Assembly: GCF_009931435.1 (NCBI RefSeq)
Contig: NZ_CP043414.1
Direction: 5' to 3' (one strand)
DNA length: 64,000 nt
Source of the DNA: Escherichia coli
GTDB taxonomy: Bacteria; Pseudomonadota; Gammaproteobacteria; Enterobacterales; Enterobacteriaceae
In this document: positions 22,777 to 34,889 of the stretch, one piece after another
Layout: the number at the start of each line of letters is the position of its first letter
Numbering within the stretch: the stretch's first letter is position 1
Notes under the pieces: model-generated
Told to the model about the DNA's origin: nothing
The model's database searches: none
The model's input: only the letters and a program-made list of their open reading frames with translations
Program-made: the position numbers and the translations under genes

Positions 22777-22902
22777 ATACTCTAAATAATTCGAGTTGCA
22801 GGAAGGCGACAAGAGAGTGAATCCTCAGGAGCTTACATAAGTAAGTGACTGGGGGGAGCGAACGCAGACGCAGCACATGCAACTTGAAGTATGACGAGTA
22901 TA
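22777..22902. repeat. ERIC (enterobacterial repetitive intergenic consensus) element in the fbaA leader
   Basis: Contains GTGAATCC-CAGGAGCTTACA and AAGTAAGTGACTGGGG-GAGCG cores (the ERIC1R/ERIC2 primer sites); about 126 bp imperfect palindrome; about 97 percent identical to the reverse complement of 34763-34889. Confidence 0.9.
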
Positions 22903-22928
22903 AGGCCCGACGATACAGGACAAGAGAC

Positions 22929-24008
22929 ATGTCTAAGATTTTTGATTTCGTAAAACCTGGCGTAATCACTGGTGATGACGTACAGAAAGTTTTCCAGGTA
23001 GCAAAAGAAAACAACTTCGCACTGCCAGCAGTAAACTGCGTCGGTACTGACTCCATCAACGCCGTACTGGAAACCGCGGCTAAAGTTAAAGCGCCGGTTA
23101 TCGTTCAGTTCTCCAACGGTGGTGCTTCCTTTATCGCTGGTAAAGGCGTGAAATCTGACGTTCCGCAGGGTGCTGCTATCCTGGGTGCGATCTCTGGTGC
23201 GCATCACGTTCACCAGATGGCTGAACACTATGGTGTTCCGGTTATCCTGCACACCGACCACTGCGCGAAAAAACTGCTGCCGTGGATCGACGGTCTGCTG
23301 GACGCGGGTGAAAAACACTTCGCAGCTACCGGTAAGCCGCTGTTCTCTTCTCACATGATCGACCTGTCTGAAGAATCTCTGCAAGAGAACATCGAAATCT
23401 GCTCTAAATACCTGGAGCGTATGTCCAAAATCGGCATGACTCTGGAAATCGAACTGGGTTGCACCGGTGGTGAAGAAGACGGCGTGGACAACAGCCACAT
23501 GGACGCTTCTGCACTGTACACCCAGCCGGAAGACGTTGATTACGCATACACTGAGCTGAGCAAAATCAGCCCGCGCTTCACCATCGCAGCGTCCTTCGGT
23601 AACGTACACGGCGTATACAAGCCGGGTAACGTTGTTCTGACTCCGACCATCCTGCGTGACTCTCAGGAATATGTTTCCAAGAAACACAACCTGCCGCACA
23701 ACAGCCTGAACTTCGTATTCCACGGCGGTTCCGGTTCTACTGCTCAGGAAATCAAAGACTCCGTAAGCTACGGCGTAGTGAAAATGAACATCGATACCGA
23801 TACCCAATGGGCAACCTGGGAAGGTGTTCTGAACTATTACAAAGCGAACGAAGCTTATCTGCAGGGTCAGCTGGGTAACCCGAAAGGCGAAGATCAGCCG
23901 AACAAGAAATACTACGATCCGCGCGTATGGCTGCGTGCCGGTCAGACTTCGATGATCGCTCGTCTGGAAAAAGCATTCCAGGAACTGAACGCGATCGACG
24001 TTCTGTAA
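22929..24008 (+). CDS. fbaA: fructose-bisphosphate aldolase class II
   Basis: 359 aa starting MSKIFDFVKPGVITGDD. Confidence 0.97.
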   Translation: MSKIFDFVKPGVITGDDVQKVFQVAKENNFALPAVNCVGTDSINAVLETAAKVKAPVIVQFSNGGASFIAGKGVKSDVPQGAAILGAISGAHHVHQMAEHYGVPVILHTDHCAKKLLPWIDGLLDAGEKHFAATGKPLFSSHMIDLSEESLQENIEICSKYLERMSKIGMTLEIELGCTGGEEDGVDNSHMDASALYTQPEDVDYAYTELSKISPRFTIAASFGNVHGVYKPGNVVLTPTILRDSQEYVSKKHNLPHNSLNFVFHGGSGSTAQEIKDSVSYGVVKMNIDTDTQWATWEGVLNYYKANEAYLQGQLGNPKGEDQPNKKYYDPRVWLRAGQTSMIARLEKAFQELNAIDVL

Positions 24009-24034
24009 GATATTCCTTTCTGCTTACCTCAAGG

Positions 24035-24223
24035 CCCGCTCTGCGGGTCTTTTTTTCGCCAAAAGCAAAATTGCCTGATGCGCTACGCTTATCAGGCCTA
24101 CATGTATCCTGCAATATACTGAATTTACAGGCTTTTGTAGGCTGGATAAGGCGTTCACGCCGCATCCGGCATGACAAAGTGCACATTGATATCTGTCTGA
24201 GCCCCGCTCTGCGGATCTTTTTT
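24035..24223. repeat. BIME (two inverted REPs) between two copies of the fbaA terminator hairpin
   Basis: cccgctctgcgg hairpin plus T-run at 24035-24056 and again at 24203-24223; REP palindromes at about 24073-24103 and 24137-24173. Confidence 0.8.
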
Positions 24224-24365
24224 CACCATAAGCAAGGTGATGCAGATGAGAAATCTGTGATCTATTTGGCAAAATTATGCTTTATTGTTTACCCTTGTCA
24301 GACTGCCCGTCATAAGGCGGCGGAGTGTATTTCTCCATTTTGAGTCAGTTGAAAAGGAATATTGA

Positions 24366-25226
24366 ATGGAAGATTTGAATGTTGTCGATAGCATAAACGG
24401 CGCGGGGAGCTGGCTGGTGGCTAACCAGGCGCTGCTGCTAAGTTATGCAGTAAACATCGTGGCGGCACTCGCGATCATCATCGTTGGTTTGATTATCGCG
24501 CGGATGATTTCCAACGCGGTGAATCGCCTGATGATCTCCCGTAAAATCGATGCCACCGTTGCTGATTTTCTTTCTGCATTAGTCCGTTACGGAATTATCG
24601 CCTTTACGCTAATCGCTGCACTGGGGCGCGTGGGCGTACAAACCGCGTCAGTCATTGCTGTACTCGGTGCCGCAGGCTTAGCTGTTGGTCTGGCTTTGCA
24701 GGGGTCACTGTCTAACCTGGCCGCTGGCGTGTTACTGGTCATGTTCCGCCCGTTCCGTGCCGGAGAATATGTTGACCTCGGCGGCGTAGCCGGTACTGTG
24801 CTGAGCGTGCAGATTTTCTCCACCACCATGCGTACTGCAGACGGTAAAATTATCGTTATTCCGAACGGTAAAATTATTGCTGGGAATATTATTAACTTCT
24901 CCCGCGAGCCAGTTCGCCGTAACGAATTTATTATTGGCGTGGCGTATGATTCCGATATCGATCAGGTTAAGCAGATCCTGACCAATATTATCCAGTCTGA
25001 AGACCGCATTTTGAAAGATCGCGAAATGACTGTGCGTCTGAACGAACTTGGCGCATCGTCGATTAATTTCGTGGTCCGCGTCTGGAGCAAAAGCGGCGAT
25101 CTACAAAACGTGTACTGGGATGTGCTGGAGCGTATTAAACGTGAATTTGATGCCGCCGGTATCAGCTTCCCGTACCCGCAAATGGATGTGAACTTTAAGC
25201 GGGTGAAAGAAGACAAAGCTGCATAA
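24366..25226 (+). CDS. mscS: small-conductance mechanosensitive channel
   Basis: 286 aa. Confidence 0.95.
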
Positions 25227-33324: not shown

Positions 33325-33527
33325 TATTTGCTCCATAAAACGCAATCAAAATGAGGGTATTTGCGCTTACGGTGAGCTTTTTACGTGGGTTTGTCGCCAG
33401 CAAAAAAAATGCATTCAGACGTCGTTTTTTGCCGCCTGAGATTTGTCTATTTTGTGATGTGATTCAAGGAATACAAAAAGAACTGGAGGTGATGCCTGGT
33501 ATGTATTACCAGGCATTATTTGATGGA

Positions 33528-34421
33528 TTATTCCTGACGAAGAACTTTGTGACCATAATCGAGCAACGCATCAGTGACTTTACGCATCATGCGGCTTTCA
33601 GGAGCAAAGCGGTGCCAGTAGAGCATCCGGCGTTGAAATAGCCCTGGCGTTAAGTCAATCAGTTCGCCGCTGGCCAGTTCTTTCTCGATTTGCAGATGTG
33701 GGATCATACAGCAGGTGGTCCCCTGACGAGCAAGTTGCACGAACGCTTCTGAAGAATTAACGATATGGCAGGGTACGCTGCCTGGAGGCAGATCAAAGTT
33801 TTGCTGCAAAAAGGCCTGGTGCATATCATCAAGATGGTCAAACGCGACCACTGGCGCTTTCAGTAATGCCGAACGCGTTACGCCGTTAGGGAAATATTTT
33901 TCGGCAAACGGTTTTGAGCTGACGAACAGATAGTCAAGCGCACCGAGCTTATCGACAAGACAACTCGGCAGCGCCTGATGTTGAATACTCACCGCGCCGA
34001 CCACTTCGCCGCGGCGCAGACGTTCCTGAGTGCGGGTTTCATCTTCTACCTGCAAGTTGAGGCGGATAGGCGAATCAGCTAACACAGGAGCCAGCGCCGG
34101 AAGCAACCACGTCGCCAGACTGTCAGCGTTGACCGCCAGTGAAAGCAGCAGCGGAGTTGAACCGGTTTGTTCATCGCCCAGCCACTCTTCTTCCAGTAAC
34201 TCCACCTGGCGTAGCAGTGCCAGCAGTTTTTGCCCTTGTTCCGTCGGGCGCGGCGGTACGGTACGCACCAACAGCGGCTGCCCGAACATATTTTCCAGTT
34301 GCTTAATGCGCTGTGAGACGGCTGATTGTGTAATGCACAGCTTTTGTGCCGCGCGCTCAAATCCTCGTTCACGTATCACCGCATCCAGTGCCTGTAATGT
34401 TCTGTAGTCCGGGCGTTTCAT
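33528..34421 (-). CDS. argP: LysR-family regulator ArgP (IciA)
   Basis: 297 aa from [28 protein letters not shown]. Confidence 0.95.
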
Positions 34422-34512
34422 TGCTGTTGTCTGCTCCTGGTAAATGCTTTTTCCTGCACTATGACACAATTTTGCGTCAGGTTGCATATACCGAAGCCGT
34501 CGGCGGGTACAT

Positions 34513-34747
34513 TTGTATCAGTGGTTAAACACGCAGCTTAAAAGATCAGGGATTTGCGCTATTGCATTTCGCTCAGCGAGTTCGCGCCCTGGTTATGTTG
34601 AATGGCGTGGCGTTATTGCCTCTGTTCGCACCGTGGAGCGGCATACCCAGACCGTTGTATGCTTTATTTGCCGGGCGAAAGGGGATGCCCGCCATTGCGC
34701 GATATTTTATGGATGAGTTAACCACGCGGCTTGCCAACGGGGTCTGA
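34513..34747 (+). pseudogene. yqfE: possible remnant of a LysR-family gene (yqfE-like fragment)
   Basis: Only short broken ORFs; the 61-aa ORF ends like a LysR C-terminus; from memory K-12 has a pseudogene between argP and rpiA. Confidence 0.3.
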
Positions 34748-34762
34748 ATCGCTTTTTTTGTA

Positions 34763-34889
34763 TATACTCGTCATACTTCAAGTTGCATGTGCTGCGTCTG
34801 CGTTCGCTCACCCCAGTCACTTACTTCTGTAAGCTCCTGGGGATTCACTCTCTTGTCGCCTTCCTGCAACTCGAATTATTTAGAGTATA
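34763..34889. repeat. ERIC element immediately upstream of rpiA
   Basis: 127 bp; reverse complement matches 22777-22902 with 3 mismatches. Confidence 0.9.

Follow-up and report, generated by a model that had tools for sequence, protein, structure and literature searches.

A near-universal ERIC element in the pgk-fbaA spacer and a rare inverted ERIC copy at the rpiA promoter of Escherichia coli

ERIC, also named IRU or RU-1, is regarded as a non-autonomous mobile repeat (MITE) of enterobacteria of ~127 bp with terminal inverted repeats and TA-rich ends, and it has been described for E. coli and Salmonella (Sharples & Lloyd 1990; Hulton et al. 1991; Wilson & Sharp 2006). The target duplication associated with ERIC was described as TA or TATA (PMC2759123, PMC2229807). 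For Yersinia, ERICs are reported to affect mRNA stability in a manner that depends on the orientation of the element and on RNase E (De Gregorio 2005, summarised in PMC2229807, PMC3184786 and PMC10969869). Two other groups of small repeats are of relevance for comparison. REP/BIME elements, e.g. in malE-malF, protect upstream mRNA from 3' exonucleases, and the Correia elements of Neisseria as well as promoter-altering IS are small mobile elements in promoter regions, whose effects on the promoter have been measured.

Both repeats analyzed here lie in a window of 64,000 nt of E. coli DNA, one in the pgk-fbaA spacer and the other upstream of rpiA, and they are of the same kind as the ERICs of E. 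coli and Salmonella. They share the length of 126/127 nt, the full-length match to the consensus, both ERIC-PCR primer sites in the core, the imperfect palindrome, the TATA termini, the intergenic location with dispersed copies, the longer variants with internal palindromic inserts and the variable presence among strains. No difference in kind was found; K-12 lacks the rpiA-site copy, which is rare at about 1.2%. Wilson and Sharp reportedly listed 14 non-K-12 ERIC loci in 2006. With the Yersinia elements the pgk-fbaA copy has in common that it is co-transcribed between two genes and forms a long hairpin; the rpiA site shows a target duplication of TA or TATA. The Yersinia model is inapplicable to rpiA, because that copy lies upstream of the transcription start. 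Like REP/BIME, the pgk-fbaA copy is a stable intercistronic hairpin within an operon with unequal expression of its genes, which makes these elements a plausible working analogue, although they belong to an unrelated sequence family, form much shorter stem-loops and have a RAYT/TnpAREP-associated origin. The rpiA copy resembles Correia elements and promoter-altering IS in that it landed in a promoter region and supplies new sequence upstream of about -11, but its effect is only inferred, it carries no consensus outward promoter, and it keeps the host -10 box and creates none.

The repeat search revealed an inverted repeat with arms at 22777-22902 and 34763-34888, each of 126 nt, 98% complementary and 11,860 nt apart. 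The arms differ at three positions, 22825 (T vs C), 22838 (T vs G) and 22855 (G vs T). Both match the complement of ERIC1R and the ERIC2 primer sequence with 0-1 mismatch, which none of 100 shuffled sequences did, and both align over their full length with the RU-1/ERIC E. coli consensus (88%, consensus as printed in PMC2759123) and with a Salmonella SeRU-1 copy (91-93%, sequence from PMC2759123). The unit of ~127 bp and the consensus with its conserved central core are present in each of them, and the termini are TATA (or CATA). As RNA, the pgk-fbaA copy folds into an imperfect palindrome or long hairpin with -47.3 kcal/mol (z = -7.75) and the rpiA copy with -37.8 kcal/mol (z = -4.8), values reached by 0 of 200 shuffles. 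Evidently, both repeats are full-length ERIC (IRU/RU-1) copies, and they are the only ones in the 64-kb window. An Rfam search over 20-38 kb assigned the ERICs to no family and matched only SIB_RNA and ES036. The near-identical inverted pair with three mismatches over ~126 nt, as proposed in the first-pass annotation, was thereby confirmed by repeat search as well as primer and consensus alignment. The elements do not, as had been stated, abut start codons: the fbaA ATG (22929) follows 26 nt past the element, the start codon of rpiA is located at 34926, and the ATG at 34890, which touches the second element, is part of the TATAATG of the -10 box and precedes the mapped transcription start.

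The main result emerged from a comparison of complete E. coli genomes, for which the first-pass annotation had suggested scoring the presence of each copy. The pgk-fbaA ERIC was found in 5414 of 5426 genomes and is fixed in the species, whereas the rpiA-side ERIC was found in 51 genomes if both flanks were required and in 66 if the ERIC and the rpiA flank were required (about 1.2%). Roughly 66 of the 5426 genomes carry both copies, and the conserved rpiA site is empty in the rest, as expected for a mobile element. This contrast, one copy fixed in E. coli and the other a rare insertion allele, had escaped the first-pass annotation. Taking all results together, we consider it likely that the fbaA copy is a co-transcribed hairpin, that the rpiA copy is a rare single insertion in a promoter, and that the pair is no inversion switch.

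The pgk-fbaA operon is said to have been dissected by Bardey et al. in 2005. Its intercistronic spacer (22715..22928, + strand) comprises 214 nt, a length that is also given in PMC2759082. According to sequence and fold, it contains on the + strand a small hairpin at 22723-22742 and a second one at 22750-22768, followed by a U run (22769-22776), then the ERIC (22777..22902) and finally 26 nt including the ribosome-binding region of fbaA. The consensus orientation of the element is the minus strand, so that the operon transcribes its reverse complement. The fbaA gene (22929..24008, + strand) encodes class II fructose-bisphosphate aldolase, as derived from the list of open reading frames and from the annotation of a 99.2% identical locus. 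A consensus promoter scan detected no sigma-70 -35/-10 pair in the spacer, and the combined promoter/terminator scan of both regions called one hairpin only. Since 5'RACE showed that a start site is absent from the 214-nt spacer (PMC2759082), fbaA is transcribed from the epd and pgk promoters and through the ERIC. The element is consequently part of a polycistronic mRNA and can form a long hairpin there, which most likely acts as an intercistronic element of RNA stability or processing. It may block 3' exonucleases to the benefit of the pgk segment, or it may give the fbaA segment a structured 5' end. The allele in the window carries two private substitutions, 22825 T and 22855 G, with the hairpin retained. 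They do not form a compensatory pair, as element position 49 pairs with 76 and position 79 with 46.

The second copy (34763..34889, + strand; short 126/127-nt form by repeat search and consensus alignment) is located between the yqfE remnant and rpiA. The remnant, a fragment of a LysR-family gene identified by annotation and comparison, extends from 34562 to 34747 in the same direction as rpiA (+); in some strains that also bear the rpiA-side ERIC yqfE is an intact gene of 298 aa. The rpiA CDS (34926..35585, + strand; ORF list and annotation) encodes 219 aa beginning with MTQDELKK, and its N-terminus is conserved in at least 80 species among the matches listed. The ERIC extends from 15 nt past the stop codon of yqfE into the -10 box of rpiA. 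For K-12, the rpiA start was mapped 27 nt before the ATG, with the -10 box TATATAAT (PMC2760140 supplement). Supplement file 3 of PMC2760140 lists the -10 as tttgTATATAATgcgt, which is the same as in the known rpiAp, and the hexamer TATAAT is placed at 34886..34891 (+ strand) by this supplement and by conservation, TATAATGCG upstream of rpiA being invariant across six enterobacterial genera. The hexamer opens with TATA, four bases that belong either to the ERIC terminus or to the duplicated target. Window and K-12 sequences are identical from the -10 box up to the ATG, and the position equivalent to the mapped start is the A at 34899 (+ strand), 27 nt before the ATG at 34926 and 10 nt downstream of the ERIC. 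Although K-12 itself has no rpiA ERIC, we infer from this identity that the ERIC-bearing strain uses the K-12-equivalent start.

The empty site of K-12, GTATATAATGCG, allows the insertion to be reconstructed. Filled genomes read GTATA-TACTCG...GAGTA-TAATGCG, and filled minus empty equals 123 nt. This gain corresponds either to a core of 119 nt plus a duplicated TATA or to a unit of 121 nt plus TA; a target duplication is plain, the TA repeat permits both sizes, and the gain fits the reported TA/TATA target duplication of ERICs. The rpiA-side ERIC was probably inserted once, at TA repeats within the TATATAAT box of the promoter. With its TATA end the element rebuilt the conserved -10 hexamer without touching the start site or the leader, and all rpiA DNA upstream of about -11 was replaced by ERIC sequence. 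With the -10 rebuilt by the ERIC end and the start located downstream, the rpiA-side copy constitutes promoter-upstream DNA and possibly also the 3' tail of a yqfE transcript, and not a leader. A simple consensus scan found no strong sigma-70 -35/-10 pair at the filled or the empty rpiA site, and no terminator was predicted between yqfE and rpiA. Read-through from the yqfE side could place the ERIC within a minor, longer rpiA transcript.

Filled rpiA alleles are uniform in their insertion and diverse in their surroundings. All 11 of 11 alleles examined share the site, the orientation and a diagnostic loop base, the C in CTTCTGTAAG, while their flanks are up to about 3% diverged and yqfE is either intact or truncated. 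Three forms were observed, a short one of 126, a medium one of 197 and a long one of 275 nt, the longer forms carrying inserts of 78 and 71 nt. The short form is found in R32_14_1F and in an O139:H1 strain, the medium form in 06-00048 and the long form in E2348/69. The shared site, orientation and base despite diverged flanks suggest one old insertion, which would have diversified in place into the three forms; the diverged flanks may be due to recombination, to recurrent precise loss, or to both. It is conceivable, albeit doubtful, that the rare rpiA ERIC is an old promoter variant of single origin with three size forms, which maintained rpiA transcription, measurably alters the expression of rpiA (pentose-phosphate pathway) and persists across diverged backgrounds, either because it is selected or because recombination and palindrome-driven precise loss balance each other.

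The direction of the change was assessed by means of an RpiA outgroup set. Among the matches listed, representatives of 80 other species clusters, of which 79 are non-E. coli Enterobacteriaceae, had no ERIC closer than 1.5 kb to rpiA. The set contains one genome per species, comprising one E. coli-named locus, one unclassified 'Escherichia sp.' and 78 loci of other genera; E. albertii, E. fergusonii and E. marmotae are not among the matches listed, and the event is not polarised within Escherichia. A gain of the rpiA-side ERIC within E. coli, i.e. a derived state, is favoured by this comparison of sequences, not proven.

In the opposite scenario the rpiA ERIC would be ancestral to E. coli and would have been lost precisely from ~99% of the lineages via palindrome-stimulated deletion between the flanking TATA repeats. 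Such a deletion would yield exactly the observed empty allele GTATATAAT, and long forms with nested palindromic inserts do exist at the site. Furthermore, filled and empty states each occur with intact and with truncated yqfE, and the same insertion is found on flanks up to about 3% diverged; the pattern of four combinations is, however, explained by recombination alone. With no ERIC near rpiA in the 80 other species clusters among the matches listed, with all sampled empty sites uniform, and with a loss of 98.8% that needs very many independent events or a very early one, we regard an ancestral rpiA ERIC as unlikely. If an empty allele lacking one TA (GTATAATGCG) were found, the present empty sites would be read as footprints left by excision; the best 12 of 19 records with at least 99% identity contained no exact match to it in one piece.

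Just as unlikely is a recent origin of the rpiA element as a direct copy of the fbaA one nearby, be it through local transposition or through gene conversion. A single nt separates the rpiA copy from the common fbaA allele, and the fbaA copy is its best match in K-12-like and O157-like genomes, but the copy at ybhI-ybhJ is only 2 nt away, and the copy at prmB-aroC shares the diagnostic C. Moreover, the 78- and 71-nt inserts of the long rpiA forms are absent from the fbaA copy, and the event is not recent, because the allele sits on diverged haplotypes. The fbaA copy was consequently rejected as a pinned donor, ybhI-ybhJ, prmB-aroC and other copies being nearly equally close. Members of the same close ERIC subfamily are present at ybhI-ybhJ, preT-yeiS, prmB-aroC and rpnC-panC, with 95-98% identity of the rpiA copy to the loci other than fbaA and ybhI-ybhJ. 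ERICs are dispersed over multiple intergenic places, with a median of 5-6 megablast places per genome. Near-identity is, judging from these alignments, general in this ERIC subfamily and not special to the fbaA/rpiA pair. The ybhI-ybhJ copy is fixed as well (5322 of 5426 genomes), and no empty site for a second comparison of duplication size was found there in the sample.

The first-pass annotation proposed that both ERICs are probably transcribed within the fbaA and rpiA leaders, where long hairpins could affect mRNA stability. Shuffled controls indeed fold much less well than either strand, co-transcription applies to the fbaA copy (PMC2759082) and ERICs affect mRNA levels in Yersinia. For fbaA, the transcribed element and its long hairpin (fold -47.3) held up, while the leader of an own promoter did not, as the element is intercistronic; co-transcription with the flanking genes, on which the Yersinia model of RNA stability builds, was found for this copy only, via PMC2759082. 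For rpiA, the element ends at 34889 and does not lie between the transcription start at 34899 and the start codon, the -10 box overlapping the element end. A promoter mapped downstream of the element had been named beforehand as the observation that would speak against a leader, and a start 10 nt downstream is such an observation. In addition, rpiA is expressed without the element in ~99% of E. coli, and the two copies are transcribed as opposite strands, which predicts unlike behaviour under the orientation-dependent Yersinia model. A common leader function of both copies is thus quite improbable.

Finally, inversion of the 12-kb fbaA-yqfE segment by the ERIC pair, be it across the population or as an isoform in a subpopulation, has next to no likelihood: short inverted repeats can in principle recombine homologously and 126 nt of 98% identical inverted sequence are present, but the predicted junction occurs in 0 of 5426 complete E. 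coli genomes, including the ~66 with both copies, the mismatches split the identity into blocks of 48, 12, 16 and 47 nt, the annotated interval contains only metabolic, transport and regulator genes and no recombinase gene, and an inverted fbaA, which is essential and has no own promoter in the spacer, would face away from the epd and pgk promoters. This detachment of fbaA from its promoters implies that an inversion would be strongly counter-selected. The best genome matches are collinear over 14 kb; neither both orientations in the population nor a dedicated site-specific recombinase nearby was found. The recombination substrate spanning fbaA to argP that had been suspected is therefore possible in principle and, with no junction in 5426 genomes and 48 nt as the longest identity, unsupported. 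As judged from the complete genomes, the two copies do not operate as an inversion switch, and their inverted orientation is incidental.

The weight of these results for basic biology is small: ERICs have been known since 1990-91, variation in their presence between strains is on record, and the K-12 reference already includes the fbaA copy. Most of the finding is ordinary, with a near-universal fbaA copy and a rare promoter insertion at rpiA. It does advise caution, as a repeat beside a gene is not always a leader and an inverted pair is not always an inversion switch. The rpiA site offers a clean comparison of filled and empty states in which short, medium and long alleles share one location, and it is usable for the study of ERIC insertion, internal deletion and precise loss. 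An insertion that falls exactly on the conserved -10 box of rpiA and yet preserves the box represents a natural experiment on the effect of a MITE on a housekeeping promoter.

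The repeat search in the window returned an inverted repeat with two 126-nt arms (22777-22902 and 34763-34888) which are 98% complementary, are separated by 11,860 nt and differ at only three positions (22825, 22838 and 22855). The two ERIC-PCR primer sequences were present in each arm with 0-1 mismatch, while 100 shuffles gave 0 matches. Furthermore, the E. coli RU-1/ERIC consensus and a Salmonella ERIC copy, both printed in PMC2759123, aligned end to end to both arms at 88% and 91-93%, respectively. These matches bear out the first-pass annotation, which had described two near-identical inverted ERICs about 12 kb apart with three differences, and both elements are ordinary members of this long-known repeat family. 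No third copy was found in the 64-kb window by sensitive blastn, and Rfam holds no family for these ERICs.

The segment runs epd-pgk-(ERIC)-fbaA-mscS-argO-yggE-srsR-scpC-scpB-meaB-scpA-argP-yqfE-(ERIC)-rpiA-serA, an arrangement collinear with those of K-12 and the closest complete genome. For positions 22000-36000 this best match among 5426 complete E. coli genomes was 99.2% identical over 14 kb and identities of at least 99% were reached in only 20 records; the lineage of the window is not closely represented in this set. The spacer between the end of pgk (22714) and the fbaA start codon (22929) measures 214 nt, and the ERIC at 22777-22902 (- strand) leaves 26 nt between its end and the fbaA ATG. 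The start codon of rpiA lies at 34926. The ATG at 34890, which touches the second ERIC (34763-34889, + strand), was rejected as a start codon, as was the 231-aa rpiA reading frame extended to it in frame, since this ATG is part of TATAATG in the -10 box and precedes the mapped start site. Consequently, the view that both elements abut start codons had to be abandoned. Rfam also matched SIB_RNA at 37298-37448 (- strand, 133.6 bits), the Sib antitoxin RNA to the type I toxin ibsC (annotated at the corresponding position of the 99.2% identical locus L001), and the sRNA ES036 (CssrF) at 24094-24136 (- strand), antisense in the fbaA-mscS spacer directly 3' of fbaA and barely above threshold (39.9 bits, gathering 37.6).

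Both ERICs were searched with their 150-nt flanks in the 5426 complete genomes. The pgk-fbaA copy was found in 5414 of them. The rpiA copy was found with both flanks in 51, and the remaining genomes matched both flanks while exactly 123 nt were absent; if only the rpiA-side flank was required, the count rose to 66 (1.2%) because some carriers have other yqfE deletions. The related ybhI-ybhJ copy is present in 5322 of the 5426. Evidently, ERICs are as a rule fixed, and the rpiA copy departs from this. Strain-level variation of this kind is already documented, with 14 additional ERIC loci outside K-12 (Wilson & Sharp 2006, as related in PMC10969869).

The empty rpiA site of K-12 reads TTTTTTTGTATATAATGCG, and filled genomes read TTTTTTTGTATA-TACTCGTC...TTTAGAGTA-TAATGCG. 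The net gain of 123 nt corresponds to a 119-nt core between duplicated TATA or, equivalently, to a TA-ended unit plus a TA duplication, and is consistent with the duplication of a TA target described for ERICs (PMC2759123, PMC2229807). In 11 filled alleles from unrelated strains site, orientation and loop base (CTTCTGTAAG) were shared despite flanks that diverge by up to about 3% and a yqfE that some strains keep as an intact 298-aa LysR gene and others as a remnant, which argues for one insertion event. Among the matches listed, the representatives of 80 other species clusters (79 non-E. coli Enterobacteriaceae, of which one, an unclassified Escherichia sp., belongs to that genus) showed no ERIC closer than 1.5 kb to rpiA, so that the insertion was most likely derived within E. 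coli. Filled and empty sites each occurred with intact and with truncated yqfE; all four combinations therefore require that the sites recombined, that the element was repeatedly and precisely lost, or both. A deletion from one flanking TATA repeat to the other would yield exactly the observed empty allele, and no alternative empty allele was seen among the best 12 of 19 records. The gene yqfE itself (34562-34747, + strand; also in loci L090, L091 and L093) is a decayed member of the LysR family that occurs in several deletion alleles, among them a 45-nt deletion relative to K-12 in the window and larger deletions in FDAARGOS_1282; SCU-172, GF4-3 and VCSW7 keep the intact 298-aa form.

Three length forms were observed at the rpiA site: a short one of 126 nt in the window and most carriers, a medium one of 197 nt with a 71-nt internal palindromic insert in 06-00048 (L004), and a long one of 275 nt with 78- and 71-nt inserts in E2348/69 (442-716 of L003) and VCSW7. 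The inserts are nested, each made up of several small hairpins, and recur in ERICs of other strains at prmB-aroC, preT-yeiS and rpnC-panC. Such insert-bearing long forms are said to have been described for the family by Sharp and Leach in 1996 and by Wilson and Sharp in 2006.

One base separates the rpiA ERIC from the common fbaA allele, and two bases separate it from the ybhI-ybhJ copy. The copies at preT-yeiS, prmB-aroC and rpnC-panC match it at 95-98% identity, and its diagnostic base recurs in one of them. As judged from these alignments, near-identity is not special to the fbaA/rpiA pair, and the fbaA copy was dropped as identified donor because copies at other loci are almost as close.

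A role of the pair as recombination substrate, as had been proposed, found no support. A chimeric junction query (pgk end, ERIC, reverse yqfE) revealed the inverted junction in 0 of the 5426 complete genomes, none covering more than 65% of the query. Both copies occur together in only about 66 genomes, their longest uninterrupted identity, set by the mismatches, is 48 nt, and no recombinase gene is annotated between them. Furthermore, inversion would leave fbaA pointing away from the only promoters known for it. Such an event is conceivable in principle but finds no support, and counter-selection is expected. In some genomes the fbaA-rpiA interval is enlarged, in RMDEC465 by an IS621-family transposase and in GF60 by a TRAP-transporter gene; it tolerates insertions, though no inversion was seen.

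With respect to transcription, no start within the 214-nt spacer was detected by 5'RACE with fbaA primers, from which the authors deduced that the epd and pgk promoters drive fbaA (PMC2759082). The pgk-fbaA ERIC is therefore co-transcribed and intercistronic. Its transcribed strand has a predicted fold of -47.3 kcal/mol (z = -7.75), both by itself and in context, and the two private substitutions that set the window allele apart from the common one are not pairing partners and leave the hairpin intact. Hence, of the earlier suggestion that this ERIC forms part of the fbaA leader, co-transcription and a long predicted hairpin stand, and the suggestion holds for the element as a "leader-like", intercistronic one. 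By analogy with Yersinia ERICs and REP hairpins, it would most likely modulate segmental mRNA stability or processing. Directly 3' of the pgk stop codon, ahead of the ERIC, two hairpins were noted (22723-22742 and 22750-22776, + strand); the second is followed by the U run AUUUUUUC and may constitute a partial intrinsic terminator.

At rpiA, genome-wide mapping in K-12 placed the start 27 nt before the ATG, with the -10 box tttgTATATAATgcgt equated with the known rpiAp (PMC2760140, supplementary file 3). Carried over to the window, the hexamer TATAAT occupies 34886-34891 and the start falls at 34899. At this distance from the rpiA ATG, TATAATGCG does not vary among E. coli, Salmonella, Citrobacter, an Escherichia sp. 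and Klebsiella. With the end of the ERIC at 34889, the first four bases of the hexamer come from its terminal TATA, and the start follows 10 nt later; thus the ERIC covers the promoter from about -11 to -137 and lies outside the leader, contradicting its proposed place in the rpiA leader. A simple consensus scan returned no -35/-10 pair in either the filled or the empty allele. Since the element begins 15 nt past the yqfE stop codon, yqfE transcripts may carry it as their 3' tail. We infer that carriers retain the rpiA start site; their promoter strength may be changed. The second copy is, as a new detail, a rare single-origin insertion allele on the rpiA -10 box, which the ERIC rebuilds.
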